From: Candidatus Sericytochromatia bacterium
Lineage (GTDB): Bacteria > Cyanobacteriota > Sericytochromatia > S15B-MN24 > UBA4093
NCBI GenBank assembly: GCA_036676495.1
Contig: JAKFCT010000100.1
Span: forward strand, 1 to 49,916
Reading direction: 5' to 3'
Length of the DNA: 49,916 nt
Shown: in pieces, positions 30,881 through 49,916 of the stretch
How positions within the stretch are numbered: the first letter of the stretch is position 1
How the letters are laid out: each line of letters opens with the position of its first letter
Made by a program: the position numbers and the translations under genes
Notes under the pieces: generated by a model
The model's database searches: none
Told to the model about the DNA's origin: nothing
The model's input: only the letters and a program-made list of their open reading frames with translations

Positions 30881-31075
30881 GGCACTCTCCTGGGTTCCCG
30901 GAGGAAGGAAGGGGCTTTCAGGCCGGCTACCGCCATGATGACGAACGATCCGCCGAAAGGCCTTGTGCCTTTCGACGGATCGCGTTGTCCAAAGCCCCCG
31001 GGTTTCAAAAAAGCCGCGATTCCAAGCCGGTCGTTTCGACAGGTCTGCTACGCTTTACTGGATGAGCCGCGGGCG

Positions 31076-31813: not shown

Positions 31814-31929
31814 CGGAAGAACTCCTTCAGGAAAGGGGCGTCGCATTCACACCCCTTTCGACGGCTCCCCGTCGCTTTTTTGTTCCATGCGCCTCGACGC
31901 GACTTTTTAGAACCGCTTCGTCCCTGACC

Positions 31930-33282: not shown

Positions 33283-33501
33283 GATCCCCTCCTCGCCCCT
33301 CGCTCCGCTCCACTCCGATTTGGCCGCGGGCGCTCGCCATGATCGGCACCGGGACGAGTATACAAAACTTAGCACCCAGAAAGAAGGCGGCCTCGCTCGC
33401 TTTCAGGCTCACCTGGACCCTTCGGGGGTAAAAGGTCATCATGAGTCTTGACCCCTGCCGCCTCGATTAATTTCCTGGGTGGGGGCCGGAAGGAGAGCTT
33501 T

Positions 33502-34893: not shown

Positions 34894-34904
34894 GAGGATT
34901 CGCC

Positions 34905-35993
34905 GTGCAGATGACGAAACGCGCGTACAACTTCTACGCGGGCCCCGCGATCCTGCCGTTGCCGGCGCTGGAGCGGGCCCGCGCGGAGCTGCTCGACTTC
35001 GCCGGCACCGGCATGTCGGTCATGGAGATCAGCCACCGCTCCAAGGAGTACGAGGCGGTCCACCAGGAGGCGGAAGCCTTGCTTCGGGATCTCCTGGCCC
35101 TTCCCTCCAACTATCACGTGCTCTTCCTGCAGGGAGGAGCGAGCCTTCAGTTCGCCATGGCCCCCATGAACCTCCTGGGACCGGGGAAGAAGGCGGATTA
35201 CGTCCTCACCGACGTCTGGTCCAAGATGGCCTTCAAGGAAGCCGGTCGCTTCGGGACGGTCCGGGAGGCGGCCAGCTCCGAGGACACCGGTTTCGACCGC
35301 ATCCCCTGGCAGCTGGAGCTGGATCCGGAGGCGACGTACGTTCACATCACCAGCAACAACACGCTCTACGGCACCCAGTACCAGGAGTTCCCGGATACCG
35401 AGGGCGTGCCCCTGGTGGCGGACATGTCGAGCGACCTCTGCGGGCGGCCGTTCGACGTCTCCCCCTTCGGGCTGATCTACGCCGGAGCCCAGAAGAACCT
35501 GGGTCCCGCCGGCGTCACGGTGGTGATCCTTCGCGACGACCTGCTGGCGGCATGCCGTGAGGACGTCGCGACGATGCTCGCCTACCCGACGCATGCCAAG
35601 AATCGCTCGCTTTACAACACTCCCCCCACTTTTAACATCTACATGCTGCGCAACGTCCTCGATTGGCTGCGCCAGCAGGGCGGCTTGGCCGTCATCGAGC
35701 GCCGCAACCGCGAGAAGGCCTCCCTCCTCTATGATGCCATCGACCGCCATCCGGACCTCTACCGCGGTCATGCGCATCTCGACAGCCGTTCGGCGATGAC
35801 GGTGACCTTCCGGCTGCGCCACGAGGAGCTCGAGGCCTCTTTCTTGGCCCAGGCGGAAGCTGCAGGCCTGATCGGGCTGAAGGGGCATCGCCTGGTGGGC
35901 GGTTTCCGGGCGTCTTTATACAACGCCATGCCCCTTGAAGGCGTCCAAGCGCTGGTGGAGCACATGGATCGTTTTGCCGAGCAGCACAGCTAG
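34905..35993 (+). CDS. serC: Phosphoserine aminotransferase
   Basis: NFYAGPA, GGASLQF, DMSS, GAQKNLGPAG, NTPP, GHR.VGG.RASLYNA. Confidence 0.95.
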   Translation: MQMTKRAYNFYAGPAILPLPALERARAELLDFAGTGMSVMEISHRSKEYEAVHQEAEALLRDLLALPSNYHVLFLQGGASLQFAMAPMNLLGPGKKADYVLTDVWSKMAFKEAGRFGTVREAASSEDTGFDRIPWQLELDPEATYVHITSNNTLYGTQYQEFPDTEGVPLVADMSSDLCGRPFDVSPFGLIYAGAQKNLGPAGVTVVILRDDLLAACREDVATMLAYPTHAKNRSLYNTPPTFNIYMLRNVLDWLRQQGGLAVIERRNREKASLLYDAIDRHPDLYRGHAHLDSRSAMTVTFRLRHEELEASFLAQAEAAGLIGLKGHRLVGGFRASLYNAMPLEGVQALVEHMDRFAEQHS

Positions 35994-36018
35994 GGGTTTG
36001 GCCGTCCCGGGAGGACGC

Positions 36019-36855
36019 ATGTTGGTAGACGCGTTTGGCAGCATCATCTGCAAGGCTCGGGTTGGGCTCGATTTGACGCGCGACGCGGTCGCGCGCGGCG
36101 CGGACGTGCCCATGCGGCGCCTGGAGCGGCTGGAGGCATGCGATCAACACCCGAGCGAAGCGGAAGCCGCGCGGCTCGCGTCGGTCTTGGCATTGGCCCC
36201 GGGGCCGCTTTGGCGGATTGCCGAGGGCAACTGGCATCCGCAGCCGGTGCCTCAGGAGAAGAACGGGCTGATCGTCCACACGATGGCCGTGCGCCAGCCG
36301 GATGGCCGGGTCTCGAATTGTCACCTGGCAGGTTACGAGGGAGACGAAGAAGCGATCGTGATCGATCCGGGGGGCGAGCCGGACTGCATCTTGGCGGAAC
36401 TGGACCGGCGCGGCTGGTGTCCGCGCTACGTAGCCCTCACGCACGGACATGCCGCACATGTGGGCGGGCTCCGTCCCATTCTGGACGAATGGGGAGTCAG
36501 CGTCCTGGTGAGCGCTGCCGAGATCCCCGCGATCGGCTGGAGCGACGGCCGCTTTCACGAGGTGAAACCCGGTGAGACCCTCACCCTGGGGCGCTACTGG
36601 GTCAAGAGCCTCTTCACGCCGGGGCATACGCCCGGAGGGATCAGCTTCCTTCTCGATCATGCCTGTTTCGTGGGGGATTCCCTCTTTGCCGGAACGATCG
36701 GAGAGGCCACCATCCCCAACGGCCATCGCATGCTTCTGGACGCACTGAAGCGCGAGGTCATGACGCTTCCTCCCGATACCCGCCTCTTTCCGGGGCATGG
36801 CCCCAACACCATGGTCGGCGAAGAGCGGGAGCACAATCCCTTCTTCGCCAAGTAA
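36019..36855 (+). CDS. XRE-type HTH fused to an MBL-fold (glyoxalase II-like) domain
   Basis: N-terminal helical HTH pattern; IDPG, THGHAAH, TPGHTPG, GDSLF, PGHG, E.EHNPF. Confidence 0.8.
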   Translation: MLVDAFGSIICKARVGLDLTRDAVARGADVPMRRLERLEACDQHPSEAEAARLASVLALAPGPLWRIAEGNWHPQPVPQEKNGLIVHTMAVRQPDGRVSNCHLAGYEGDEEAIVIDPGGEPDCILAELDRRGWCPRYVALTHGHAAHVGGLRPILDEWGVSVLVSAAEIPAIGWSDGRFHEVKPGETLTLGRYWVKSLFTPGHTPGGISFLLDHACFVGDSLFAGTIGEATIPNGHRMLLDALKREVMTLPPDTRLFPGHGPNTMVGEEREHNPFFAK

Positions 36856-36913
36856 GCCTCACGGTCCCGACGCCCTGGGGCGTTCGCCGCCCGTCTCCGG
36901 CGTCCGAGGCCTC

Positions 36914-37045
36914 AATATCACCAAATATCACTGTTCGTAAATTATTTTTTTGAGGCCGGAAACCCAGGTATGGCCTGCGTTTCCAGGGCGCGAGCGAAAA
37001 TCGAAGCAGGCAAGTACATATATGTTTATGTTTAAATATTAAGCA
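36914..37045. promoter_or_regulatory. AT-rich regulatory region with a direct repeat and a palindrome
   Basis: AATATCAC at 36914 and 36924; ACATATATGT at 37016-37025. Confidence 0.55.
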
Positions 37046-37116
37046 CCGGGGTATGAATCCCCAGGACACGCAAAAGGGTCCCTGGGACTCCGAGCATCAA
37101 GTGAGGTTTCGAAGCG

Positions 37117-37329
37117 ATGATCACGATGAGCCTGTATTGCCCCTTCTGCCACGATGATCTGGTTTCGGTCACCGCTAGCGGCGAGGAATTCACCTGCCGG
37201 CACTGCGAGGCGATGGTCGATATCCTGGATGACGACCTCTGCATGGTCAGCCGCCCCCCGAATCACCTTGACGTCTCGATCATGGCGACGTTGGAGCTGG
37301 GTTCGCGTCAGGCCGCGGTTCGGCTCTAG
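37117..37329 (+). CDS. Small zinc-ribbon protein
   Basis: CPFC...CRHC; GAGGT RBS. Confidence 0.55.
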   Translation: MITMSLYCPFCHDDLVSVTASGEEFTCRHCEAMVDILDDDLCMVSRPPNHLDVSIMATLELGSRQAAVRL

Positions 37330-37344
37330 CGCTCGCGACCGGAC

Positions 37345-38427
37345 TCAGCGTCCGCCGCTCGTGGATAGGAACGCGTCAAGATAGCCCTCGGGATCGCGTT
37401 CCTTGGCCACTTTGTCTCTGAAGAAGGCGACGAAGGCCCGAAGGTCACGCCCCAACCGGTCGTAGACCTTCTCGAAGCGGTGCATGTTGCCGTGGTAGGT
37501 CAGGTACGTCACGAGGTACGCGTTGTTGAGGGGAACGCGATCCCGTCTCTGGTAGCCTCTGGTCTCGAAGGCGAGACCTTGCAACTCCGAGTTGGCCCGG
37601 GCGAAGCGTGCTTCGCGCCGGGCCAGCATCTCTTGCGGCGCGAGGCGCGAGGCGTAGAGCATCCGCAGATCACCGGCGAGCTCCTCGATGAACGCCGCGT
37701 AGCGGGCCTGGTCGCGCGCGCTGGCCTCCGCTTCTTTCACTTCGGCCGAATCGGCGCCAAAACGCATGCTCAGGAACTGCAACGCCCCCTGGTCGCCCAC
37801 GAAGGTCGCGAATCCCTCGTTGAAGCTCGGCTTTCCCGCCAGAAACGCGGTGCCATGCGTGAGCTCATGAATGATCACGTTGGCGAGCCCCGGCCGCGAC
37901 GCCGCGAGCATCGGGGAGTAGAGCGGATCGGGCACGAACCCGAGCAGGCTGAACGCCGAAACCCCGCGCAGGTAGGCGTCTAGCCCTTGGGTCTCGAGAT
38001 GGGCCTTCTCGCGCTCGGCGTCCCCTTTGTTGAAGTACCCCTTGTAGGGGACATGACCGACGATCGGGAACCACCAGAGGTGGGGCTCCAGCCGATCCTT
38101 GGGGGCGCCGGCGACCACGTAGCTCACCGCCTCGCGATCCAGGCGTATCAGCTGATCGTACGAGGCGCTTTTCTTGAGCCCGAGCTGCGTTTCGGCGAAC
38201 GCCTTGGCTTCCCGGACCAGGACGAGACGATCGCGCGTCTCGGCATCCAGCGTCGGATCCGAAAGGACCCGATCGAGGGGCTCACGGCGCATCAAGAGCG
38301 ACACCTGGCCCTGACCCTGCTGCAAAAGGTAGCCCAAAGAGCACGCCGATGATCCCAGGACCGCGCCCCCCAAGGCGAGGCCCCAAGCCAGCATGCGAAG
38401 TATCTGCCCGCGCGGCGCAAGTTTCAA
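37345..38427 (-). CDS. Predicted zinc aminopeptidase lipoprotein (PF10023-like)
   Basis: WWFPIVG.VPYKGYF, HELTH, FNEGFATFV; lipobox SSAC; alternative start at 38394. Confidence 0.85.
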   Translation of the reverse strand: MKLAPRGQILRMLAWGLALGGAVLGSSACSLGYLLQQGQGQVSLLMRREPLDRVLSDPTLDAETRDRLVLVREAKAFAETQLGLKKSASYDQLIRLDREAVSYVVAGAPKDRLEPHLWWFPIVGHVPYKGYFNKGDAEREKAHLETQGLDAYLRGVSAFSLLGFVPDPLYSPMLAASRPGLANVIIHELTHGTAFLAGKPSFNEGFATFVGDQGALQFLSMRFGADSAEVKEAEASARDQARYAAFIEELAGDLRMLYASRLAPQEMLARREARFARANSELQGLAFETRGYQRRDRVPLNNAYLVTYLTYHGNMHRFEKVYDRLGRDLRAFVAFFRDKVAKERDPEGYLDAFLSTSGGR

Positions 38428-38618
38428 GATTAAGCTTTCTATAAGGAAATTAACCGGGACTTACCCTCTTGCGAGGCCGCCCCATTCTACGGGGTCGCGG
38501 CCCCCGGAGCAAGGCCCCGACGAGGTTTGGACCCGGTCGCCCTCGGACCGGTGAAACGAGACGGCAAGCGGCTGACCCCCGGCACGACCCTCTCTAACGA
38601 GCGTGAACAGGCTTTGAG

Positions 38619-38960
38619 ATGCAACTGAGCGACATCAAAACCTACGAGCCCCCCCGATCCTTGAGCGCCGCGACCCGGTCCTCGAGTGACTCGGCGGGCT
38701 TCGCTCCGCCGCCGCCTCCGATGGCCGGCGATCGCGCCCAAATTCGCAACCGCCCTCCCCGGCGCGCCCCTCAAGCCGCCCCTCTCAACCTCGCCCTCGG
38801 CTGGGCGGCCCTCGCCTTCGCCGTGATCGCCCTGCTGATCGCCTTGGGACTCGGACAACTCGGCGGAGCCCTGGGGTTGCTGCTCGGCTGGCTCAGCGCC
38901 GCCTTCGCCTTCACCGCCCGCCGCGAGCTCCTCACCCTGCTCGACCGCGCCCTGCGCTGA
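38619..38960 (+). CDS. Hypothetical two-TM membrane protein
   Basis: Two hydrophobic helices after a disordered N-terminus. Confidence 0.55.
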   Translation: MQLSDIKTYEPPRSLSAATRSSSDSAGFAPPPPPMAGDRAQIRNRPPRRAPQAAPLNLALGWAALAFAVIALLIALGLGQLGGALGLLLGWLSAAFAFTARRELLTLLDRALR

Positions 38961-39030
38961 CGTTCACCTCCCCGAACACCCGATTTCGGAAATTTCTCTT
39001 CCGAGAGCCCCTGCCCCGCACGTCCTTGGG

Positions 39031-39190
39031 TACAATAGTAGCGTCTAGCGTAGCCCAGCCCTCGAGCCGCTCAGCGGCGCCAACGTCTTTGAGACGGAAG
39101 GCTGCGGGTGATGCTAGCGGAGGCCTCGACCATGCGGTCGGCCTGACCGTTTCGCGAGGCCCGGCGCCAAGAGATGCCTAGGGGAGGGGT
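39031..39190 (+). promoter_or_regulatory. -10 box (TACAAT) followed by a structured leader of about 150 nt
   Basis: Nested stems CTAGCGT/ATGCTAG, CAGCC/GGCTG, GGCCTCG/CGAGGCC. Confidence 0.45.
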
Positions 39191-39196
39191 TCGACC

Positions 39197-39601
39197 ATGG
39201 CTCAGATGCCAGATCAGTTCATTCAAGAGATTCAGGCCGGTTTCTTCGGAGACTTCCTCATCTCCAAGCGCCTCATCAACGGCGAGCAGCTCCGCCGCTG
39301 CCTGCAACTCCAGGAGAAAGAAAAGCGCCACCTGCGCATCGGCGAGATCCTCGTCGAGCAGGGCTACCTCGACCCCGCCGAACTCATCCCCTCCCTCACG
39401 GAGTTCAAGGTCCAGATTCGCCTCGGCGAACTGCTCATCTCCACCGGCGAGCTGACCTTCATGCAGCTCCTCGACGCGCTCGACGAACAGCGCCGCACCG
39501 GCGATCACCTGGGCGAGATCCTCGTCCGCAACGACTTCTGCGAGGCCCAGACGGTCAAGGAAGCCCTCGAACTCCAGCAGTCCCTCCTCGTCGAAGTCTG
39601 A
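39197..39601 (+). CDS. Stand-alone MshEN-type (c-di-GMP-binding) repeat protein
   Basis: Four motif copies: FFGDFLISKRLI..L..CL.LQ, RIGEILVEQGYL, RLGELLISTGEL..L..AL.EQ, HLGEILV..AL.LQ. Confidence 0.75.
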   Translation: MAQMPDQFIQEIQAGFFGDFLISKRLINGEQLRRCLQLQEKEKRHLRIGEILVEQGYLDPAELIPSLTEFKVQIRLGELLISTGELTFMQLLDALDEQRRTGDHLGEILVRNDFCEAQTVKEALELQQSLLVEV

Positions 39602-41181
39602 TGCTCCCGGCCCCCGATTCGCTCTCGCTGCGCGAGCAGCTTGGCCAGCTCATCGCCCCCCTGCTCCCCAGCCACGCCTTCCAGGCCGAACCGGACGCCC
39701 TCGACGTCCAAATCACCGAGCTGCGCCAGGGGCGCTGGGGCGGCTACATCACGATCTTCCCCAAACCCGACCTGACCACGGCCCTGACCCGTCTGCAGGC
39801 CGAGACGGCGATCCCGCTCCTGGTGGCTTGCGACCTCGAACGGGGAGCGGGCCAGCACCTCGACGGGCTCTCGCGCTTTCCCCATATCATGGCCCTCGGG
39901 GCCGCCGAAAGCACGGAGCTGGCTTACCAGCAGGGACGCCTCACCGCGCTCGAAGCCCGCGCGGCCGGCGTCCACTGGGTGCTCGCCCCGGTCGCCGACG
40001 TCAACTCCAACCCCGCGAACCCCATCATCAACGTCAGGGCCTTCGGCGGGGACCCGGACCACGTCTCGGACCTGGTCGAAGCCTTCGTGAAAGGCTGCCA
40101 GGAACACGGAGCGCTCGCCACCGTCAAGCATTTCCCCGGCCATGGCGACACCGACGTGGACTCCCATGCCGCCCTGCCGGTCATCCACGCCAACCGCTTG
40201 CGCCTGGACCTCATCGACCTCCGGCCGTTCCGGCGGGCGATCGCCGCCCGCGTCGCCGCCCTCATGACCGGCCACATCGCCGTCCCCGCGCTCGACCCCA
40301 CCCTGACGCCCGCGACCCTCTCGGAGCCCATCATCACCGGCCTCTTGCGCCGAGACCTGGGCTATGACGGCCTGGTGGTCACGGATGCCTTCAATATGGC
40401 CGGCGTCGCCGACGCCACCAGCGAGGAAGAAGCCGCCATCCAGGCCATCCGCGCCGGCTGCGACGTCATCCTCATGCCCCCGCATCCCCTGCGCGTCCTG
40501 GACGCCCTGGAAGCAGCCGTCCTCGACGGCAGGCTGAGCCGGGAGCGCGTCCTGGAGGCCTGCCGCCGCGTCCTGGCCGCCAAGGCCTCGATCGGCCTCG
40601 ACTCCCCCGAAAAGGCCGCTCCCTCCGAGCGGATCACTCCCCATGCGGAGGCCGCCCGGGTCGCCGAGGCGATCGCCGCCCAGGCCATCACCATGGTGAA
40701 GGGAGACGAACACTGCCTCCCCTTGAACCCGGAGGCCACCGCATGCCTCCTGCTCGACGACGACGGAGACGCGGCCGTCTACGCCCCCTGGGACGAGGCC
40801 CTGGCCACCTACGGCATGACCCGCAGCGTCCTCGATACGAAGTCAGGACCCGCCGAGTACGGCCGGATCATGGCCGAGCTGAAGGGCTGCGAATACTTGC
40901 TGGTGCCGGTCTTTGCTCACGTGAGGGCCTGGAAGGGCCGCATCGGCTTGCTTCCGGAGATGGCCAGCCTCCTCAATCGGCTCGCGGCCGCGGGCACCCG
41001 GATCGTCCTGGTCTCATTCTCGAATCCCTACCTGATTCGCCAGGTCCCGGACGTCTCGGCTTACTTCTGCGCGTACAGCGACCATCCAGCTTGCCAGCGC
41101 ACGGCGCTGGAGGTGGTCATGGGCGATCGCCCCCCTCAGGGCATCCTGCCCGTGGAGCTGAGCGTCACGGTGGACGCCTGA
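39601..41181 (+). CDS. nagZ: GH3 beta-N-acetylglucosaminidase
   Basis: KHFPGHGDTDVDSH signature; DLERG; VTDA. Confidence 0.9.
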   Translation: MLPAPDSLSLREQLGQLIAPLLPSHAFQAEPDALDVQITELRQGRWGGYITIFPKPDLTTALTRLQAETAIPLLVACDLERGAGQHLDGLSRFPHIMALGAAESTELAYQQGRLTALEARAAGVHWVLAPVADVNSNPANPIINVRAFGGDPDHVSDLVEAFVKGCQEHGALATVKHFPGHGDTDVDSHAALPVIHANRLRLDLIDLRPFRRAIAARVAALMTGHIAVPALDPTLTPATLSEPIITGLLRRDLGYDGLVVTDAFNMAGVADATSEEEAAIQAIRAGCDVILMPPHPLRVLDALEAAVLDGRLSRERVLEACRRVLAAKASIGLDSPEKAAPSERITPHAEAARVAEAIAAQAITMVKGDEHCLPLNPEATACLLLDDDGDAAVYAPWDEALATYGMTRSVLDTKSGPAEYGRIMAELKGCEYLLVPVFAHVRAWKGRIGLLPEMASLLNRLAAAGTRIVLVSFSNPYLIRQVPDVSAYFCAYSDHPACQRTALEVVMGDRPPQGILPVELSVTVDA

Positions 41182-41182
41182 C

Positions 41183-42445
41183 ATGCGCCTCCGGCGCCTC
41201 GGGCTGCTTCCGGCCCTGCTCTCCCTGGCCCTGCTCTCGGCCTGCGCGACCCGCTCCGGCACGCTCAGTTTCGCGACCTGGGGTTCGGTCGACGAGATTG
41301 CCCTGCTCAAGCCCTTGCTCGCGGAGTTCACCGCCGAGACCGGGACCGAGGTCGAGCTCGTCCACATCCCCGAGAGCTACTTCCAGAAGCTGCCGATTCT
41401 CTTCGCCTCCCGGCAGGCCCCCGACGTCCTCTTCCTCAACAACATGACCGTTCCCGCCTACGCCGACTCCGGAGCCTTGCTCCCGCTCGATGAGCAGCTC
41501 GCGGCCTCCCCCACCCTCAAAGAGGGGGACTTCTACGCGCAGGGGCTCGAGGCGATGCGCTGGAAGGGCCAGCTCTACGCCGTGCCGCGCGATCTTTCCA
41601 ACCTCGTGGTCTACGTCAACCGCCGCATGTTCGACGAAGCGGGCCTCTCCCTCCCCCCCAAGGACTGGACCATGGCTGAGATGCTCGACGTGGCCCAAAA
41701 ACTCAGCCGCAAGAGCCCGCAGGCCCACGATTCCCAGGCTCGGACGTTCGGCATCTCCTTCGACAAGCGCCCTCTCTTCTGGCTTCCGTATCTCTGGAGC
41801 GAAGGGGGAGACCTCTTCGACGCCGGTTTCACCCGCTCCACCCTCGCCGAGCCCCAGGCCATCGCGGCCATGCAGTTCTACGCGGACCTCGCGCATCGCC
41901 ATCACGTCGCCCCCCGCGAGATCGACACGGGCAACGCGCCGATGGCGCAGCTCTTCGCGCAGGGGAAGCTGGCGATGTTCGTGAGCGGGCGCTGGAGCGT
42001 GCCGGGCTTCCGCAAGTCGCTGACCTTCGACTGGGACGTCCTCCCCTTCCCCACCGGCAAAGCCGGATCCATCGTCGACGTGGACGCTTCCGGCTGGGCG
42101 ATCTCGGCCCAGAGCCCGCGTCAGGACGAGGCCTGGAAGCTGATCTCCCACCTGGCGGGCAAGCATGCGAGCGAAACCTTCTCGAAGGGCGGCCTGATCG
42201 TTCCCGCGCGCCGGGACGTCGCCGAGGCCCCGGCCTTCCTCTCTCTCGGACAGGCCCCGCGCTCCTCCATGACCTTCCTGGATGCGCTCGCCACCGGCCG
42301 GCCTACCCGCACGCCCCCCAACTGGGGCGAGGTGACCACCGTCCTGGACCTCGAACTGGGGCCCCTCTGGCGCGGAGAAGCCTCGGCCTCGCAGGTCCTC
42401 CCCAAGGCCGCGCGCCGCATCGACGAACTCCTGAGGCAGAACTGA
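41183..42445 (+). CDS. Sugar ABC transporter substrate-binding lipoprotein
   Basis: Lipobox LSAC; GQLYAVP, YVNRRMF, FAQGKLAM. Confidence 0.9.
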   Translation: MRLRRLGLLPALLSLALLSACATRSGTLSFATWGSVDEIALLKPLLAEFTAETGTEVELVHIPESYFQKLPILFASRQAPDVLFLNNMTVPAYADSGALLPLDEQLAASPTLKEGDFYAQGLEAMRWKGQLYAVPRDLSNLVVYVNRRMFDEAGLSLPPKDWTMAEMLDVAQKLSRKSPQAHDSQARTFGISFDKRPLFWLPYLWSEGGDLFDAGFTRSTLAEPQAIAAMQFYADLAHRHHVAPREIDTGNAPMAQLFAQGKLAMFVSGRWSVPGFRKSLTFDWDVLPFPTGKAGSIVDVDASGWAISAQSPRQDEAWKLISHLAGKHASETFSKGGLIVPARRDVAEAPAFLSLGQAPRSSMTFLDALATGRPTRTPPNWGEVTTVLDLELGPLWRGEASASQVLPKAARRIDELLRQN

Positions 42446-43341
42446 TGGGCATCGGCAAGTCGCTCTCCAAACTCACCCGCCACGACGGCTTCTGGGCCTT
42501 CCTGCTCGCCGGCCCCACCCTGCTCGGGATTTTGGTCTTCAACCTCATGCCGATCGCCGGATCCTTCTGGCTGAGCCTCACCAAGTGGAATCTGCTGTCG
42601 GCCCCGCGCTTCGTCGGCTTAAAGAACTACCAGGACCTGCTCTCGGATTCCCTGTTTTACCAGGTGATGGGCCAGACCTTCGCCTTCGTGGGCATGGTGG
42701 TCGCCCTCGAGCTCGTCTTCGGCGTCCTCGTCGCCATGGCCCTCAACTCCAAGCTCAAGGGAAGCACGTGGCTGCGAACGGCTTATTTCCTGCCGTTCGT
42801 CACCTCGATGGTCGCCGTCAGCATCGTCTGGGGCTGGGTCTTCGACCCGGCCAACGGCGCCCTCAACATGCTCCTCAAGGCCCTGGGATCCGCTCCCGTC
42901 GCCTGGCTCGCTGACCCGAACATCGCGCTGCCCGCCCTCGCCTTCCTCACCGCCTGGAAGGGCCTGGGCTACGCCATGATGCTGATCTTTGCTGGCTTGC
43001 AGGCCATCCCCGCTCAGTACGACGAGGCGGCCTCCATCGATGGGGCCACCCCCGTGCAGCGCTTCTTCCGCGTCACGCTGCCGCTGCTGAGCCCCACGAT
43101 CTTTTTGGTGGCCGTGCTCTCGACCATCAATGCCTTTCAAGCCTTCGATGCCGTCTACCTGCTCACCGCAGGAGGACCGGCCAATCGCACCACCACCATC
43201 GTTTACTGGCTCTACCAGAACGCCTTCGTCCACTACAACCTCGGTAAGGCCTCGGCGATCGCCTACGTGCTCTTTGCCGTGCTGTTCCTGCTGACGCTGA
43301 TCCAGTGGGGCGTCCGCAAGAAGTGGGTTTACGCGGAATGA
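42445..43341 (+). CDS. Sugar ABC permease (MalF-type)
   Basis: FVGLKNY; EAASIDGA EAA loop. Confidence 0.92.
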   Translation: MGIGKSLSKLTRHDGFWAFLLAGPTLLGILVFNLMPIAGSFWLSLTKWNLLSAPRFVGLKNYQDLLSDSLFYQVMGQTFAFVGMVVALELVFGVLVAMALNSKLKGSTWLRTAYFLPFVTSMVAVSIVWGWVFDPANGALNMLLKALGSAPVAWLADPNIALPALAFLTAWKGLGYAMMLIFAGLQAIPAQYDEAASIDGATPVQRFFRVTLPLLSPTIFLVAVLSTINAFQAFDAVYLLTAGGPANRTTTIVYWLYQNAFVHYNLGKASAIAYVLFAVLFLLTLIQWGVRKKWVYAE

Positions 43342-44150
43342 GAATCGTCGCTTACCTGATCCTGCTCGTCGGAGCCCTGTCGATGGTGGCGCCGTTCGCC
43401 TTGATGCTGGCGACCAGCCTCATGACCGCTGAGCAGGCCATGAGCTATCCCCCGCGCTTCTGGCCCGATCCCGTCGCCTGGGGGAACTATGCCCAGGCCT
43501 TCGTCACGGCACCGTTGTGGAGGTACTTCTGGAACTCGGTGCTGGTCTCGGGCGCGACCGTGCTGGGGCAGGTGCTCACGGGGGCGATGGCCGGCTATGC
43601 GTTCGCCCGCTTGACGTTCAAGGGCCGGAACGTCCTCTTTCTCGCGGTGCTCGCCACGATGATGGTGCCTCCCCAGGTGAACGTGGCGCCCTTGTTCGCG
43701 ATGATGTGTCAGTTCGGCTGGGTCAACACCCACTGGGCGCTCATCGTGCCGGGTCTCTTCGGGGCTTTCGGGGTCTTCCTCCTGCGGCAGTGGTTCCTGA
43801 CCTTCCCCACCGAGCTGGAGGAGGCGGCGAAGCTCGACGGCTGCACCCCCTGGGGCACGTTCTGGCGGATCGCTCTGCCCACGGCGGCCCCGGCCCTGGC
43901 GACCCTGGCCATCTTCGCGTTCATCGCCTCGTGGAACTCGTTCTTCTGGCCGCTGATCGTGACGCATTCGGATGCCGTGCGCACCCTGCCGGTCGGACTC
44001 GCCGCCTACAAGAGCTCCTTCCGGGAGATCACCGACTGGGGCGTCCTCATGGCCGCCACCACGCTTTCAGTCCTGCCCGCCGTGGGCGTCTTCCTCTTGG
44101 GGCAGCGCTACTTCATCCGGGGCATGCTGGCCGGTTCCGTCAAGGAGTAG
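43338..44150 (+). CDS. Sugar ABC permease (MalG-type)
   Basis: ATGA overlap; EEAAKLDG, WNSFFWP, GSVKE. Confidence 0.92.
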   Translation: MRIVAYLILLVGALSMVAPFALMLATSLMTAEQAMSYPPRFWPDPVAWGNYAQAFVTAPLWRYFWNSVLVSGATVLGQVLTGAMAGYAFARLTFKGRNVLFLAVLATMMVPPQVNVAPLFAMMCQFGWVNTHWALIVPGLFGAFGVFLLRQWFLTFPTELEEAAKLDGCTPWGTFWRIALPTAAPALATLAIFAFIASWNSFFWPLIVTHSDAVRTLPVGLAAYKSSFREITDWGVLMAATTLSVLPAVGVFLLGQRYFIRGMLAGSVKE

Positions 44151-44281
44151 GACAGCGCGGCTTCACCGCATATCTTTCAAGGAAAATCCAAGCAAATTCT
44201 GCATGTCTACTAGCCATGACGCCGGTCTTGTGGCATGGTGTGACGGCGTTCTGCTGTTTCGTTTTTATGCGGGAGGGAGAC

Positions 44282-44551
44282 ATGCCTGGAATTTCGACGG
44301 AAGTCCCACAGCGCTTGATGGCACGGGTTCTCGAAGGTGCCGCTCGTAGGCTGGGCGTGGGGATCGACCAAATCCAGGTGGAACGGGTGGAGGCGACGAC
44401 CTGGGGAGACAGCTCCCTGGGGTGTCCACGGCCCGGCATGGTGTACGCCCAAGTGATCACCCCTGGCTATCGCATCGTGGTCAGCAATGGTGGCCGGCGG
44501 CTCGTGTTTCATACCGATAGCCGCGACGATGCCGTGCTTTGTCAGCGATAG
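44282..44551 (+). CDS. Conserved hypothetical protein (W.D.SLGCP..G..Y.Q..TPGY family)
   Basis: GGAGGGAG RBS; recognisable conserved motif. Confidence 0.75.
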   Translation: MPGISTEVPQRLMARVLEGAARRLGVGIDQIQVERVEATTWGDSSLGCPRPGMVYAQVITPGYRIVVSNGGRRLVFHTDSRDDAVLCQR

Positions 44552-44573
44552 GAGGGTTCGGAAGGAGCGGGTC

Positions 44574-44870
44574 ATGATGGATAAGCTGGCCGAAAAGACG
44601 TGGCACGGCATGCCGCAGGAAGCGATCGAGGCAAACCAAGATCGGATTCCGGCGCGCGAGCCGGCGGGGAAGTTCTTCGCTCCCCCGAGCGGCTACCGCT
44701 ATCCGAAGGTCTATTTTTCGGGAAATTATGGCGCCCTCTGCGGCGAGTTCCAGGAATTCTGGCGACAGAACATCACCAAGGACACCGCTGCGCAAGTTGC
44801 CTGGTCGGCATTTGGGCTCTGTGGACATTCGATTCGCTACTACGACGACAACGGCCAGGAAATCGGCTAG
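44574..44870 (+). CDS. Hypothetical protein
   Basis: AAGGAG RBS; followed by a hairpin. Confidence 0.6.
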   Translation: MMDKLAEKTWHGMPQEAIEANQDRIPAREPAGKFFAPPSGYRYPKVYFSGNYGALCGEFQEFWRQNITKDTAAQVAWSAFGLCGHSIRYYDDNGQEIG

Positions 44871-44880
44871 GCAACTAGCT

Positions 44881-44905
44881 TGGGCGGCCCTCCCGGGGCC
44901 GCCCA
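44881..44905. terminator. Hairpin terminator
   Basis: TGGGCGGCCC/GGGCCGCCCA. Confidence 0.6.
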
Positions 44906-44983
44906 TCCTCTATCCATGCGGTTCTCGCTTGACGCTCGCTCTCCAAGTCTCCAGCCACGGGCGTCTCGCATCAGCCGCGGGCG

Positions 44984-45199
44984 CTAATCGCCGGGGCCTG
45001 GCATATGATGCTTAAAGGTCTTCGGCATGGGCATGTGTGATTCAATGCGGGTCTCCTCACGCCGGCGGGCCGCGGCGGCCTCTCGTCTCTGGCGTTCGAG
45101 ACGCTCGTCGTCCTCCCGAGAATCGGGGCCACTTGAGTCAGGGGCGGGTCTCTGTACGGCTTCCGGGCGGGAAGTACTTGGAGATCGGCGCTTTGACAT
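44984..45199 (-). CDS. Possible small charged protein overlapping the 3-prime end of the DUF6338-like gene
   Basis: GGGAGG RBS before ATG 45199; E/R-rich helix. Confidence 0.35.
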   Translation of the reverse strand: MSKRRSPSTSRPEAVQRPAPDSSGPDSREDDERLERQRREAAAARRREETRIESHMPMPKTFKHHMPGPGD

Positions 45200-45866
45200 A
45201 GGCAGGCCTCCCATTTTCTAGGCTGGGGCAGTCCCAAAACGTCACCTGAAGGATCTGGTCGCCCCGAATCCAGACCCCTTGGTTGCCCTCGATCGGCAGC
45301 CAGGTTCCATCGCCGGCGTAGTGGTACTGCCAAAGTAAGGCGATGTCCCGCTCGTCATGGGAAGCAAAAGCCTCCTTGGAATAGATGCCACCGAGGACGT
45401 GATTGTCGGTCAGGAAAATGGTCACGAAGTCAGGACGCTTGTTCTGGCCGATGACGGTGAACTTGTAATCCCATGCGGACTTGCTCAAACCGAGCGGATG
45501 AATCCCGACCAGCTTCCAGAACCAATTTCGCTGGCCTGCCGACATCGATCGGCCGATCAAGACCCCCAGTACCGCGGGGCTGACGAGAGCCACCAGGAGG
45601 ACGGCCAGCGCACCGGCTATCTGGGGATGGGTCTGCACCCACGGCGTGTGGGACAGGGGGAAGAGGATCGGAAACCAAAGGGCCAGGTTCAGACATGCCA
45701 GCGATAGAAAATGCAGGATCCGAGCGGAGGGATCCTTGCTCGTCCGTGGCATGTAGGCCGCAAAGACGGTGTAGAGGATGAAGCCTGGCACCACGAAGAG
45801 CAGCACCGGCAAGATCAGATTGGGATCGATTTGCGGCAAGCTCGGTAATGTGAGGGGATTGGCCAC
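45138..45866 (-). CDS. DUF6338-like membrane protein
   Basis: AGGAGGT RBS; FVVPGFI, three TM segments, SAWDY.F, GVWI...I. Confidence 0.7.
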   Translation of the reverse strand: MANPLTLPSLPQIDPNLILPVLLFVVPGFILYTVFAAYMPRTSKDPSARILHFLSLACLNLALWFPILFPLSHTPWVQTHPQIAGALAVLLVALVSPAVLGVLIGRSMSAGQRNWFWKLVGIHPLGLSKSAWDYKFTVIGQNKRPDFVTIFLTDNHVLGGIYSKEAFASHDERDIALLWQYHYAGDGTWLPIEGNQGVWIRGDQILQVTFWDCPSLENGRPAYVKAPISKYFPPGSRTETRP

Positions 45867-46021
45867 TGTAACCTCCTGGCCGATCGGGCCGAGATGATCC
45901 TAGCGCAATCCCCATGGGTGCAAAGCGCCGCGCGGACGAAATCCGACGCGAATTCTGGCCATTCAAGCCAGCTTTGGGTAGGGCTTGCCCTGCCTACGTC
46001 ACGGCCGAGTGCCCGCTAACG

Positions 46022-48115
46022 TCACGTGCTGGACGGCGTTCCCCGTTCGAGCAAGCTCCTGAGCCGGCCCCTGGCCTGGTTGAGGGCCTCGCGCGCCTCT
46101 GAGGGCGAGAGCCGGGTCGCGTGGATGGCGATCGCCAGCTTCACCGACCCGTCCGCCTGATCGAGCAGCGCTTGGGCCGTGGCCGCGTCGACGCCCGCGA
46201 CCCGCTGGATGATCCGCAGGGCGCGGGCTTGGAGCTTCCGGTTCGAGACCTTCACGTCGACCATCAGGTTGCCGTAGACCTTGCCCAGGAGCACCATGGC
46301 CGTGGTCGAAATCTGGTTGAGCGCGAGCTTGGTGGCCGTCCCCGCCTTGAGGCGGGTCGAGCCCGTCAGGACCTCGGGCCCTACGATCAAAGGCAGCGGG
46401 TGATCGACGTAGTCCAGGGGAGGCAAGGGGTTGCAGGCGATGAGCGCGGTCGTCGCGCCCGCCCTCTTGGCCGTTTTCAAGGCTCCATGGACGTAGGGAG
46501 TGCCGCCGCTCGCCGCGATCCCCACGACCAGGTCTCGGGGCCCGACGCCGCGCGCCTCCAGGTCCGAGCCCCCGGCCTCGGCATCGTCTTCGGCTCCTTC
46601 GATGGCCTGGGTCAGGGCCTTGGATCCCCCGGCAATCAGCCCCTGGAACCATTCCGGAGGAGCCGAGAAGGTCGGCGGAATCTCGGACGCATCCAGGACT
46701 CCAAGCCTTCCGCTCGTCCCCGCCCCCACGTAGAAGACCCTCCCTCCCCCGCGAATCGCCTCGGCAGCCGCAATAGCCACCTGGGCCGTCGCCAGGCTCC
46801 CGGCTGCGACCGCTTCGGCGGTTTGGGCATCTTCGGCGCTCATCAGGGCGGTGATTTCGGGGGCCGTGAGCGTGTCGAGACGCTCGCTGAGCGGATTGGG
46901 GGTCTCGGTGACCGGGTGGGGCTCGTCTACCGTCGCGGGTGCCAGCAGCAAACGCTGGAAGTTCGCACCGGGACTGATCTTGCCGAGGAGGACGGGCCGA
47001 TCGGCCCCGGTCGTCTCGGGGAGGTGGTTGTTCGCGCCGAAGACGGCCTGATAGGCGAGCACGGCGAAGGCCACGGCCTCCTTGGCGTCGGCATCGAAGC
47101 CCCGCGCGTCGCTGGGCAGGACCTGAGCCTCGGGAAGGGCTTGCGCGAGCATGGCCATGAGCGTGCGGTTATGGGCACCGCCGCCGCTCACCAGGATCTC
47201 TCCGGGCAGGACGGGCAGAAAGTCGCGGTAGGCGCGGGCGATGCTCCGGGCCGTCAAGGCGGTGGCGGTGGCGATCGCGTCCTCGGGCGACAGGCCCTGT
47301 GCCAAGGCCTCGTCGTAGCGCGCATCCGCGTAGGCCTGACCGAATTCTTCACGTCCGGTGGACTTCGGCGGCTGCGCGGCAAAGTAGGCATGGCGCAGCC
47401 AGGTTTCCAGCAGGCCTTCATGGACGTGGCCCCGGGCGGCGTAGCGGCCCTCGGGGTCGAAGTGCTCGCGGCCTGCGGTGAAGCGCTCGACGAAGCGGTC
47501 GATGACCATGTTGGCGGGGCCGGTGTCGAAGGCGACCGGTGCCTGTCCGGGGACGAGGGCGGTGACGTTGGCGATGCCTCCCAGGTTCTGGAGGGCCACG
47601 GCAGGGGCCGAGCTGCCGAAGAGCAGCTGATCGACGAAGGGCACGAGCGGCGCTCCCTGGCCCCCCGCAGCGACGTCCGCTTTGCGGAAGTCCGAGACGG
47701 TGGTGATGCCCGTGCGGACGGCGATGAGCGAGCCGTCCCCCAGTTGCAAGGTGGAGGGGGCCTCCCCGCTCGGGCGGTGCCATAGCGTCTGGCCGTGCGA
47801 TCCGATCAGATCCGCGCGCCCCCCCGCTTTCGCCAGGACCGCCTCGGCGGCCTCGGCAAAGAACGCGCCTAGCAGGGTGTCGAGTTCGGCCAAGCGGTCG
47901 ATTCGGCTGGTCTCGGGGGCGAGTTGCTCCTGGATGCGCGCGCGGAGCGTGGCGGGCATGGGCAGGGTGAGGAAGGCTTCCAGACGGAGGTCCAGGCCCG
48001 CGGCGCGCGGGGTGAGGGAGACCAGGGCCGCGTCGCAGCCGTCCAGGGAGGTGCCGGACATCAGGCCGATCACGCGCAGGGGACGGCGGTAGGGGGAGTG
48101 ATTAAGGCGTTGCAT
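46022..48115 (-). CDS. anmK-murQ: Fusion of anhydro-N-acetylmuramic acid kinase and MurNAc-6-phosphate etherase
   Basis: GLMSGTSLDG, SHGQT, GGQGAPL, FDTGPAN, KEAVAFA; then GAGTSGRLG, GSTRLKAGTATK, KVYGNLMVDV. Confidence 0.93.
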   Translation of the reverse strand: MQRLNHSPYRRPLRVIGLMSGTSLDGCDAALVSLTPRAAGLDLRLEAFLTLPMPATLRARIQEQLAPETSRIDRLAELDTLLGAFFAEAAEAVLAKAGGRADLIGSHGQTLWHRPSGEAPSTLQLGDGSLIAVRTGITTVSDFRKADVAAGGQGAPLVPFVDQLLFGSSAPAVALQNLGGIANVTALVPGQAPVAFDTGPANMVIDRFVERFTAGREHFDPEGRYAARGHVHEGLLETWLRHAYFAAQPPKSTGREEFGQAYADARYDEALAQGLSPEDAIATATALTARSIARAYRDFLPVLPGEILVSGGGAHNRTLMAMLAQALPEAQVLPSDARGFDADAKEAVAFAVLAYQAVFGANNHLPETTGADRPVLLGKISPGANFQRLLLAPATVDEPHPVTETPNPLSERLDTLTAPEITALMSAEDAQTAEAVAAGSLATAQVAIAAAEAIRGGGRVFYVGAGTSGRLGVLDASEIPPTFSAPPEWFQGLIAGGSKALTQAIEGAEDDAEAGGSDLEARGVGPRDLVVGIAASGGTPYVHGALKTAKRAGATTALIACNPLPPLDYVDHPLPLIVGPEVLTGSTRLKAGTATKLALNQISTTAMVLLGKVYGNLMVDVKVSNRKLQARALRIIQRVAGVDAATAQALLDQADGSVKLAIAIHATRLSPSEAREALNQARGRLRSLLERGTPSST

Positions 48116-48212
48116 GCCTCGAGTGTACTCCCGGATCGGCCGAGGCTCAAGCGCGTTTCCCCGGGTTGCTTGCGTTCGCGACTATTTTTCGCTTTGAACT
48201 CCAGTTCCGAGG

Positions 48213-48239
48213 TTAAGACCGCTATAATAAGTTTAAGAC
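48213..48239 (+). promoter_or_regulatory. Consensus -10 (TATAAT 48223-48228) flanked by TTAAGAC direct repeats
   Basis: TTAAGAC at 48213 and 48233. Confidence 0.6.
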
Positions 48240-49547
48240 GTTCGAGCTTGCCGCTCGAGCAGGTTTCGTCTCGGAAGGATCGACGTGCCGCAAACCATCA
48301 CGGTGGAGCTCTTCGCTCCGACGCTCGCCAAGCAGGAGACCTTCCGCCAGATGCAGGCGGAATTCAATCGGCTGGCCAATGAGCTGGCGGACGCCTCCTT
48401 GGGCGCCCTGAGCGATCAGGCCTCCGAGATGCTGGAGTGGATGGTGCCGACCGCCTGGCATGGCTCCCTGTACCGGATGGTGCAAGGCCGCCTGAAGACC
48501 ATGGCCATCCGGGGCGAAGGCGCCCGCTTGGCGCGCTTCAAGTCGCACCACCCGGTGGTCTTCGATCCGGCTGCCTGGCAACTGAGCGCGGTCGACGGCA
48601 CCTGGAAGCTCACGATCCCGGTCTTCGGACGGACCGTCTCGGTGCCGATCCTGGTGCCGCCCAGCCAACTGAGCCGTTTGAGCCGCATGCTGGAGGCGGG
48701 GACGCCGCTCGAGGGGCGCCTCTACCAAAAGAAAGGCCGCTGGTACTTTGCGGCCACCTACCTCAACCGTGCCGGAAAGGCCGATGGCAGCCGCCACTGG
48801 GCGTCCTACCGCCCGGTCGGGGTGGATCTCGGGCAACGCATGCTGGCCGTCGCAGTCGACCCCGTGCGCAATCGCCGGATGTTCCTCTCCGGCAAGGAAT
48901 CCCTTTACCATCGCAAGCGCTACGAGCGGATCCTCAAGCGCCTGCGCAAGGCCGGGACCCCGGCTGCACGTCGTGCGGCCAAGCAGGTCGAGGCCAAGTA
49001 TGCACGTTTCCTCGAACACCGCGATCGCCGCGTGGCCAATGCCATCGTCCGGTTCGCGTTGCCGCCCTCCGGGGCTTTGGCCGGCATGCCGCTAACCGCG
49101 CGGCTGGCCAGGCGCGTGGTGATCAAGTTCGAGGACTTCCAAACGGCTCCGTCCACCGCGGAGGTCGCCTCCTACCGTCGCATTCAAGGCCTGGTGGCCC
49201 GTCGAGCAGAGCTCGCGGGTCTCCCGGTCGTGGCGGTCAGTCGGCATGAGACCTCCCAGCGGTGCGCGCAGTGCGGAGTCGTTCAAGAGGGCAATCGCAA
49301 GGGCGGGCGTTATGCCTGCGCTTGCGGCTATCGGTCGCACGCCGATCTCAACGCGGCGCGCAACCTCGCCCAAACGGCGATCCAGTCCGAAGGGATTGGG
49401 ATCGTGCCTGCCGGGTATGAGCCCGGCAGCCAGGCCGTCGGCACGGCTGTATCTCAAGCGGTCCATTGGCTCAAGGGAACATCGGACCACCTGAGAAGCG
49501 CTTTGGCGCATGCCACCCCGCAAATTCCTCCATCCCTTGCAGTTCAA
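48237..49547 (+). mobile_element. Putative non-autonomous IS200/IS605 (IS1341-like, tnpB-only) element or domesticated remnant; boundaries inferred
   Basis: TTTAA then a hairpin at the left; tnpB; structured 3-prime region ending GTTCAA; no tnpA. Confidence 0.45.
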
Positions 49548-49916
49548 ACGCAACTCACACATATGGAGGTAATTCAAATGGCTAGCATCGTTAAGGATCT
49601 CACCGACACCAGCACGAAGTTCGTGACCGGGAGCCTCGACAACCTCAAGACCTACGTGGACCGGACCAGCGACGAGCTGGGCAAGGTCGACGTGGTCGGC
49701 GTGACCCGCCGGGTGCTCGACACCGCCATCGACAACACCAAAGCGGTGGTGAAGATGGCCGCCGAGCCCAACGGCCTCGACTTCTTCGGCAAGGCCAAGG
49801 CCGTCGCCGATGGCTCGCTCGAGGCCGCCAAGGAGGTTGTGAATACCATTTCGGAAGAGGGTAAGAAGACCGATTTCTTCGGGATGGCGACCCGCATGAC
49901 GATGGATTCGCTCTCG
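48285..49916 (+). CDS. tnpB: TnpB-family RNA-guided nuclease fused in frame to a helical repeat protein (at least 544 codons, open at the window end)
   Basis: Manual translation from GTG 48285 (AAGGA RBS): VGVDLG (D181), IKFED (E283), TSQRCAQC...CAC, HADLNAARNL (D354); no stop codon to 49916. Confidence 0.88.
   Translation, partial: MPQTITVELFAPTLAKQETFRQMQAEFNRLANELADASLGALSDQASEMLEWMVPTAWHGSLYRMVQGRLKTMAIRGEGARLARFKSHHPVVFDPAAWQLSAVDGTWKLTIPVFGRTVSVPILVPPSQLSRLSRMLEAGTPLEGRLYQKKGRWYFAATYLNRAGKADGSRHWASYRPVGVDLGQRMLAVAVDPVRNRRMFLSGKESLYHRKRYERILKRLRKAGTPAARRAAKQVEAKYARFLEHRDRRVANAIVRFALPPSGALAGMPLTARLARRVVIKFEDFQTAPSTAEVASYRRIQGLVARRAELAGLPVVAVSRHETSQRCAQCGVVQEGNRKGGRYACACGYRSHADLNAARNLAQTAIQSEGIGIVPAGYEPGSQAVGTAVSQAVHWLKGTSDHLRSALAHATPQIPPSLAVQTQLTHMEVIQMASIVKDLTDTSTKFVTGSLDNLKTYVDRTSDELGKVDVVGVTRRVLDTAIDNTKAVVKMAAEPNGLDFFGKAKAVADGSLEAAKEVVNTISEEGKKTDFFGMATRMTMDSLS
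49390..49567 (+). ncRNA. Candidate omegaRNA-like scaffold plus guide
   Basis: Closing stem AAGGGAT/ATCCCTT encloses several hairpins; followed by GTTCAA; lies at the 3-prime end of the tnpB domain. Confidence 0.4.
49578..49916 (+). CDS. Amphipathic 30-31-aa helical repeat protein (phasin/apolipoprotein-like), partial; internal start in the tnpB frame
   Basis: GGAGGT RBS 7 nt before ATG; strong codon bias resumes; repeats begin DLTD, DVVG, DFFG, DFFG. Confidence 0.75.
   Translation, partial: MASIVKDLTDTSTKFVTGSLDNLKTYVDRTSDELGKVDVVGVTRRVLDTAIDNTKAVVKMAAEPNGLDFFGKAKAVADGSLEAAKEVVNTISEEGKKTDFFGMATRMTMDSLS

Follow-up and report, generated by a model that had tools for sequence, protein, structure and literature searches.

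The window analyzed here, 49,916 nt in length, is the whole of one contig (G000:C100) of a metagenome-assembled genome whose related records are named Candidatus Sericytochromatia. Toward its 3' end, on the forward strand, a TnpB-like gene (core at 48285-49391) and a small gene that starts with the ATG at 49579 share one reading frame, which has no stop after the TnpB core and continues into the second gene. An initial annotation of this DNA had proposed that the linker between the two might double as an omegaRNA, the kind of RNA that accompanies TnpB, with a guide running into the ribosome binding site of the downstream gene. Comparison of orthologues indicates that the interval 49388-49578 encodes a conserved pseudoknotted RNA, consisting of hairpins P0 to P3 and a loop-to-3' pseudoknot. 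The covariation among 22 orthologues bears out the idea that an in-frame linker doubles as a conserved structured RNA, which starts just after the RuvC-III motif.

For this comparison, 37 loci were taken from genome and metagenome collections; 14 of them were duplicates, and one (L049, which is without the TnpB part) was left out, giving 22 distinct interval sequences. The structure was tested on a MAFFT alignment of these 22 orthologues, which was not fitted to any structure and spans 49401 to 4 nt beyond the 3' strand of the pseudoknot, with two controls, namely, partner columns slid by 1 to 3 columns and 500 shuffles. The alignment has no gap in its first 106 or last 37 columns, and length change is confined to the tip of P3. 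Five helices plus the pseudoknot were paired in 89.7% of the cells, versus 34 to 50% with the partners slid, and 21 of 35 pairs had changed on both sides, that is, in a compensatory way; none of the 500 shuffles reached any of the five measures. RNAalifold independently recovered the covarying stems. Besides, when 14 representative sequences were folded singly between invariant anchors, the same hairpins arose from differing sequences with three exceptions: P0 in the degraded copy of genome G010 (L070), P2 in L045, and P3 in the g7 group, where the anchor was off target and the hairpin was found by eye. Folding of the window's own sequence gave a minimum free energy of -67.4 kcal/mol for 49385-49547 (z = -2.07; 5 of 200 shuffles folded as well) and a z-score of -1.28 for 49388-49600 (19 of 200 shuffles as good). 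Because such z-scores are weak, one sequence is unable to decide the matter, and it is the comparative evidence that establishes the structure.

All pairs (9/9) of the first hairpin, P0 (49407-49430; CTGCCGGG/CCCGGCAG), are compensatory, with 94.7% of the cells paired, and P0 folds alone in 13 of the 14 representatives. The second hairpin, P1 (49433-49448; GGCCGT CGGC ACGGCT), is invariant in sequence, including third codon positions: five of its six pairs never vary, and the closing U-A pair is absent in 6 of 21 distinct rows, so that its pairs neither support nor oppose pairing. The long hairpin P2 (49452-49496; TCTCA..GGTCC/GGACC..TGAGA) bears a conserved loop, CAAGGGA, at 49472-78. At its base (49452-56/49492-96), four of five pairs covary, one of them being UA in 10, CG in 6, and GC in 3 sequences. 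The apical helix has group-specific letters and still forms a hairpin of 14 to 18 bp with the loop (Y)AAGG(G) in 13 of the 14 representatives, the minimum-energy fold of the segment differing from the hairpin in L045 (z = -0.3); the upper part is paired in 68.6% of the cells in fixed columns because its register shifts between groups. Hairpin P3 (49498-49509; GCGC TTTG GCGC) is the sole length-variable place of the scaffold, with insertions of 0, 6, 9, 12, or 21 nt, all multiples of three, and at its base (49498-500/49507-09) two of three pairs covary and 100% of the cells are paired. It is followed by a single-stranded word, CATGCC (49509-49514), in which CATG and the last C never change and the fifth letter hardly does. 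The words quoted in the initial annotation were all located in the window: CTGCCGGG/CCCGGCAG within 49408-29, GCCGT/ACGGC at 49434-47, TCTCA..GGTCC/GGACC..TGAGA at 49452-96, TTCAA at 49543-47, and the supposed guide ACGCAACTCACACATATGGA at 49548-67. Its stems fared unequally across the homologous loci, where P0 and the base of P2 covary and P1 is invariant, whereas the outer stem is unconserved; P3 is a hairpin beyond its list.

The pseudoknot joins the loop of P2 at 49472-78 to a 3' strand, TCCCTTG (49533-49539), by 7 bp in the window. The word CCCTT (49534-38), whose partner is AAGGG (49473-77), is invariant apart from L011, in which the two had changed jointly (AAGGA/TCCTT), and the seventh pair is A-U in 5, U-A in 3, and C-G in 1 of 21 distinct rows. 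In all, 88.4% of the cells were paired and two of seven pairs had changed on both sides; because four of the pairs never vary, support for the pseudoknot is moderate. The outer stem of the initial annotation, AAGGGAT (49390-96) with ATCCCTT (49532-38), is a perfect 7-nt inverted repeat in the window, but the codon alignment places AAGGGAT only in the window's own five-sequence group (L003, L004, L005, L046, and L050). We also observed that GAAGGGAT (49389-49396), near the 5' end of the RNA, is a near-duplicate of CAAGGGAA (49472-49479) in the P2 loop. Each of them is able to pair with TCCCTTG, and the other groups are without the first copy; in the window's own group, two exclusive pairings could act as a switch.

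We then consider the coding side of the interval. Its length falls into seven classes of 75 to 87 codons, all multiples of three, and 23 sequences contained no in-frame stop in frame 0 versus 32 and 26 in the other two frames. Since the interval is stop-free and in frame, ribosomes coming from tnpB would read through into the downstream protein. One could suppose that the interval is a protein linker only, in which amino acid constraint (QAVGTA, KG, and PPSL) has been at work and the stems are a chance product of GC-rich coding DNA. The frame that is open in every sequence, the few residues that seem conserved in the protein alignment, and the weak single-sequence z-scores would agree with this. 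We regard it as extremely improbable, however, given that the compensatory changes lie far above the slid and shuffled controls and that synonymous sites are frozen exactly at the "conserved residues." Indeed, third codon positions are invariant in CAGGCCG.CGGCACGGCT, and this synonymous freezing of QAVGTA and similar residues implies that the constraint acts on nucleotides rather than on amino acids. The ratio of nonsynonymous to synonymous substitution rates (dN/dS) of the interval is 0.5 to 1.05 in most pairs and 3.4 in one, with values of 0.13 to 0.22 confined to L008/L009 and to the closest pairs within the window's own group, and the interval dS is 0.06 to 0.23 versus 0.25 to 0.87 for the tnpB body in the same close pairs. 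In distant pairs, changes are spread evenly over the three codon positions (e.g., [24, 27, 26] and [20, 15, 20]). Furthermore, residues 370 to 450 have no secondary structure in the AlphaFold2 model, in which their predicted local distance difference test score (pLDDT) is 26 to 44.

The TnpB-like core itself has a GTG start and about 369 amino acids, at which residue (nucleotide 49391) the ordered part of the AlphaFold2 model ends. It possesses the RuvC D-E-D triad, with the RuvC-III motif DLNAARN beginning at 49344, and a zinc-finger/TNB domain within an overall WED-REC-RuvC fold, as expected of a TnpB. It matched Pfam PF07282 (Cas12f1-like TNB) with 57 bits (cutoff, 26.3), and NCBIfam guided_TnpB, scored on the orthologue L005, with 89.4 bits, under the cutoff of 100. 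Against annotated TnpBs, the best-covered tblastn rows showed 97 to 100% coverage and 23 to 27% identity. In Foldseek, the model matched Cas12f (E = 1.6e-17) and ISDra2 TnpB (8h1j; E = 1.5e-11) with a probability of 1.00, at TM-scores of merely about 0.3. The triad and the zinc finger are retained in 20 of the 22 distinct orthologues, and the dN/dS of the tnpB body is 0.11 to 0.24 in close pairs, which indicates purifying selection. The gene is single-copy in the genome, and no mobile IS200/IS605 or IS607 context was found: there is one copy, at the same site in the family, with no adjacent TnpA. We did not find a CRISPR array either, in that no tandem or direct repeats occur in 30000-49916 or at the start of contig C103.

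Immediately 3' of the RNA, a Shine-Dalgarno (SD) sequence (GGAGG, 49565-69) and the ATG (49579-81) make up the start region 49563-49581, in which all 22 sequences have the same GGAG and ATG. The downstream gene runs from 49579 to 49916 and ends at position 285 of contig C103, the first 123 nt of which (C103:1-123) overlap the window's final 123 nt (49794-49916). It encodes a helical protein of 166 amino acids with a dN/dS of 0.07 to 0.25, it is present in 25 of the 26 genomes that belong to the order and in 0 of 34 others, and no paralogue of it was found. The protein matched no Pfam or NCBIfam family, and its AlphaFold2 model, with four long helices, has a pLDDT of 44 and is therefore too poor for a fold search. 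Atlas feature scores were 0.91 to 0.92 for phasin-like, with recognition under the usual level, and a PhaC_N match lies elsewhere in the genome; the protein is possibly phasin-like, which we offer as a lead only. In both G000 (C100/C103) and G002 (C100/C44), which belong to the same genus, the assembly breaks inside this gene, and the second contig begins at residue 73 of the protein in both, which hints at strain variation or uneven coverage. On the other side of tnpB lies a divergent open reading frame (46022-48115, reverse strand; 697 amino acids), which appears from its motifs to be a fusion of AnmK with a MurQ-type SIS etherase; its AnmK part is a syntenic neighbor in the loci inspected.

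In a survey of 61 related genomes, the best-matching TnpB orthologue stood beside the divergent anmK in all 9 genomes of the window's family and in 6 of the 8 that represent a second family, and TnpB orthologues always lay inside an open frame of 480 to 692 amino acids. A covariance model of the fold (R1), searched in 47 genomes of the class, matched once per genome and only at this locus (family f1, 9/9; f2, 1/1; f4, 7/8), with only weak partial or low-scoring matches elsewhere, and wherever the fold occurred, at least a remnant of TnpB was present as well. The 8 family f3 loci inspected have neither TnpB nor the motif, and the downstream homologue there is solitary, preceded by an extended -10 promoter; one of these loci (L079) sits in an open frame of 541 amino acids.

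Several natural variants bear on what the RNA needs. In an alignment of 20 rows (A7), at least 90% of the rows agree on each triad residue, namely, D in GVDLG, E in KFE, and D in ADLNAARN, the exception being L045 (genome G014), with D changed to A, no E, and no RuvC-III. In this G014 lineage (L068/L045), GVDLG reads GVALG, and 38 unrelated residues stand where the zinc finger and RuvC-III would be; the open frame into the downstream gene is kept, the RNA is full (R1, 116 bits), and the dN/dS is 0.27 versus the sister. G010 (L070) holds a TnpB remnant only, together with a degraded RNA (R1, 57 bits) in which CCCTT is altered. We infer from the REC-deleted variants described below, the nuclease-dead lineage, and the remnant that an RNA-centered role fits better than DNA targeting.

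As for expression, we compared the window with RNA contigs from four runs (X1 to X4) of four studies. The contigs are 617, 681, 747, and 790 nt long, differ from the window by 3, 3, 8, and 13 letters (about 97 to 99% identity over about 500 to 530 nt), and start at 49419, 49425, 49388, and 49388, respectively; all run beyond 49916, by their length to about the terminator on C103. Their 5' ends on the forward strand fall into two classes, one at 49388 (X3 and X4) and one at 49419 (X1) and 49425 (X2). In X4 (contig depth, 501), the start at 49388 comes immediately after letters that we take to be an Illumina adapter tail. The tnpB body was left without cover in the four runs except for a 121-nt piece of X4 with 10 differing letters; such missing cover in contigs is not evidence of absence. 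Instead of the discrete small RNA that the initial annotation would lead one to expect, the RNA seen in these public libraries, in contigs only, is 617 to 790 nt long and runs through the downstream gene.

Near-identical words of 49388-49916 also turned up in RNA libraries of 13 studies, labeled soil, seawater, manure, bioreactor, or simply "metagenome" (shares, 0.17 to 0.23); shares of about 0.2 were not used as habitat evidence. A seawater run gave the contig of depth 501. Such occurrences would mean either a very wide distribution of the organism or carriage of the RNA in reagents or water. The metagenome contig L049 (1631 bp) contains the region from about 49421-24 to 6 nt past the downstream stop, embedded in unrelated DNA with 21 to 39% GC on both sides, and differs by three letters in 401 aligned window positions. 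Its 5' junction coincides with the RNA contig starts 49419 and 49425, and a T-to-C pair near 49502-04 is common to it and X1. A chimeric assembly, a chimera of the cDNA type, or transfer of a cassette could each account for it.

A leader that heads the RNA contigs of the downstream gene might be thought to be a cis-regulatory element sensing a ligand or temperature, setting stability, or masking the SD, with an only historical link to TnpB. Like SD-masking leaders such as riboswitch platforms and RNA thermometers, the RNA is situated after an RNA 5' end and ahead of the SD of a gene that is highly conserved, and it contains a C-rich word, CCTCCAT (49527-49533), that can pair with the SD region ATGGAGG (49563-69), with 77.9% of the cells paired across orthologues. 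Its geometry is rigid, with no insertions or deletions in 106 columns, and it is retained when the nuclease part of TnpB decays. Yet the covariation of CCTCCAT/ATGGAGG is no better than in shuffles and the pairing takes a different form in f4, so we do not retain this helix as more than pairing potential. Moreover, the RNA matches no known leader family: a search of 48000-49916 against Rfam 15 at E values up to 10 gave two chance-level rows, neither in the interval, and nothing in 49388-49578. Unlike such leaders, it lies inside an open frame and arrived with TnpB; it is absent from all 8 f3 loci inspected, where the gene is alone, and never occurs without at least a TnpB remnant. The open tnpB frame and the purifying selection on TnpB would also be left unexplained. 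We therefore hold a leader of this kind, linked to TnpB by history only, to be quite improbable.

The stretch that follows the pseudoknot (49540-49562) takes the position of an omegaRNA guide; it is kept within the window's own group and cannot be aligned from one group to another. In ISDra2, as described in part of one report (PMC10097598), the 3' strand of the pseudoknot occupies -5 to -3, directly before the guide, and its partner is in the loop region of stem 1. By this rule, the guide would start near 49540-41 and not at 49548, where the initial annotation had placed it. The TTCAA that served there as the right-end word is not conserved across orthologues; the right-end oligonucleotide of ISDra2 carries GGTTCAAG (PMC2806898, in part).

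It might be argued that the omegaRNA is still a working one and that TnpB, or its fusion, takes 12 to 20 nt from about 49540 as its guide for DNA binding or cleavage, acting like a TldR regulator or as a nuclease, in which case the part that extends into the downstream mRNA would be mere 3' padding. The triad and zinc finger kept in 20 of 22 orthologues and the dN/dS of 0.11 to 0.24 speak for this, as does the fact that the pseudoknot adjoins a group-variable stretch, as guides vary. Precedents are also at hand, at least in the portions of the reports that concern them: DNA cleavage by AmaTnpB survives 3' padding (PMC10278001), and TldR clades adjoin their linked host gene (PMC13622181). On the other hand, neither the genome nor the 22 loci yielded a target beyond chance, whether beside a transposon-adjacent motif (TAM), as for an omegaRNA guide, or in a host promoter or 5' region, as for TldR, and the downstream gene has no paralogue to repress. 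Two independent lineages are without most of REC, which in ISDra2 reads the TAM together with WED (PMC10097598, in part), and keep both the RNA and a constrained protein; the nuclease-dead G014 retains the RNA as well. With no target and with REC-deleted and nuclease-dead variants that keep the RNA, RNA-guided DNA targeting is unproven, and we consider a still working omegaRNA unlikely.

The reading that we favor, and judge to be somewhat probable, is that the interval is the omegaRNA-derived scaffold of a fixed TnpB, now used as the leader of the downstream gene's mRNA and as a coding linker. Most likely, an ancient TnpB element supplied the RNA in the form of its omegaRNA scaffold (right end); that the post-pseudoknot stretch still guides TnpB to DNA is less likely. 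The fold (49407-49539) occupies the 3' end region of tnpB, has the orientation of that gene, and begins 40 to 60 nt past the RuvC-III codon, and it is a conserved scaffold with the pseudoknot 3' strand (whose support is moderate) abutting the guide position. The omegaRNA (reRNA) of IS200/IS605 TnpB is likewise on the tnpB strand and begins in a dispensable C-terminal part of the coding sequence, and the omegaRNAs of ISDra2 and AmaTnpB likewise have several stems plus a pseudoknot whose 3' strand is just before the variable stretch, as far as the relevant part of the ISDra2 report goes (PMC10097598). The AmaTnpB omegaRNA obtains its 5' end by processing of the tnpB mRNA and tolerates 3' extensions (PMC10278001, in part). 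Unlike known omegaRNAs, the RNA here is single-copy and fixed, with no TnpA, no recognizable ends, and no similarity in sequence or model, and here the tnpB frame runs through the scaffold into a host gene, as whose mRNA the RNA continues. The layout also departs from that of ISDra2, with two hairpins here before the pseudoknot hairpin and one after it.

TldR proteins, the repressors linked to fliC, csrA, and oppF, offer another comparison, being immobile TnpB homologues that stand with a guide-RNA gene beside one host gene (PMC13622181 and PMC10705468, each in part). Unlike in TldR, the triad is kept here in 20 of 22 orthologues and lost only in the G014 lineage (L045/L068) and the G010 remnant, the protein is fused in frame to its neighbor, and the RNA is part of the neighbor's mRNA.

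A number of results weigh against the favored reading and should be set beside it. Single-sequence folding energy is unremarkable, modestly above chance. Neither Rfam 15 nor 13 mobile cyanobacterial TnpB loci, in which R1 had no whole-model match, gave any similarity, by sequence or by model, to a described omegaRNA, so that descent from an omegaRNA is inferred by position and architecture only. R1 likewise found nothing around 47 viral-contig 17-mer matches, in which only the seeded word matched and whose number was about that of chance. Of the mobile cyanobacterial loci, five were inspected, and their 3' regions mostly end in a GTTGAC-type word and have no shared motif; in the plasmid collection, the closest TnpBs are 23 to 29% identical and therefore too distant for RNA comparison. 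In the genome, which is 91.9% complete, no match to 49530-49600 beyond chance was found with 13-mers at up to one mismatch, the longest runs being 16/18 and 15/16, and a search for exact matches of at least 9 nt gave no guide-stretch match of at least 10 nt within 21 of the 22 loci. The single in-locus match, of 12 nt in L017, is absent from L017's relatives.

Other such points concern the protein and the transcript. Genus g3 (L013-L015 and L051) and L010, two separate lineages, are missing about 70 to 100 residues of the REC lobe (about 48380-48650), with the rest of TnpB conserved in both and a dN/dS of 0.17 for the TnpB part of g3. That the RNA is kept with damaged TnpB implies that its value is independent of an active nuclease. 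A sigma-70 consensus scan of 48050-49916, which is crude, found no full -35/-10 site, and the start at 49388 is accordingly without promoter support. Lastly, assembled contigs show coverage and not strand, level, or true ends, so that their ends are a weak hint, and they leave room for a processed RNA of small size or for weak expression of the tnpB part.

Under the favored reading, a TnpB element was probably inserted in the 5' untranslated region of the small helical gene in an ancestor of three Sericytochromatia families; a single insertion between an f3-like promoter and the SD, followed by fixation, would be the simplest history. The DNA would now do two jobs. One, as RNA, would be that of a structured 5' leader of an abundant downstream mRNA with 5' ends at 49388 or 49419-25; the other, as coding sequence, would be that of a disordered linker, in frame and free of stops, that leads into the downstream protein, whose gene is also equipped with an SD and ATG of its own. 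The whole unit may be transcribed from a promoter upstream of tnpB, for which the TATAAT at 48223-48228 (forward strand) is a candidate -10 box; such a promoter would serve tnpB, the leader, and the downstream gene alike. A AAGGTTAAGACYGCTATAAT-like word or TGnTATAAT lies 60 to 130 nt upstream of the TnpB start in most f1 orthologues. The 5' end of the leader might be made by processing, plausibly at TnpB's own RuvC site as in AmaTnpB, and TnpB may stay bound to the scaffold. In the part of the AmaTnpB report that treats this step (PMC10278001), the RuvC site cuts the protein's own mRNA 5' of the omegaRNA, the 3' side is left uncut, and 3' padding is tolerated, a precedent that makes a scaffold-capped mRNA mechanistically plausible.

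More tentatively, it is possible, if doubtful, that TnpB and its omegaRNA were exapted together as a cis-acting module for mRNA maturation. In such a module, one promoter would serve the whole unit, and the RuvC site of TnpB would cut the read-through transcript at the 5' edge of the scaffold. Because the "guide" became the SD region of the downstream gene, the scaffold, with TnpB bound via WED and RuvC, would cap and stabilize the downstream mRNA or gate its translation. The upstream tnpB fragment would have no stop, and uncut transcripts could then be the sole source of free TnpB, in the form of a TnpB-linker-protein fusion; feedback would thereby be built in.

In the literature searched, we found no paper on TnpB in Sericytochromatia, and for TnpB with phasin none of those listed was relevant by title or abstract start; we found no paper that describes this arrangement. 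Known domestications of TnpB are the Cas12 effectors of CRISPR systems and the nuclease-dead repressors (TldR). Here, a TnpB that mostly retains its catalytic residues is fixed across three families of nonphotosynthetic relatives of the cyanobacteria, and the natural variants among them (REC-deleted, nuclease-dead, and remnant-only) are suited to dissecting which TnpB activities the RNA needs. If TnpB does bind or process the leader, this would be a new outcome of domestication, in which an RNA-guided nuclease has become an mRNA maturation or translation factor, and a natural case of one DNA stretch that is selected at once as an RNA fold and as an open frame.

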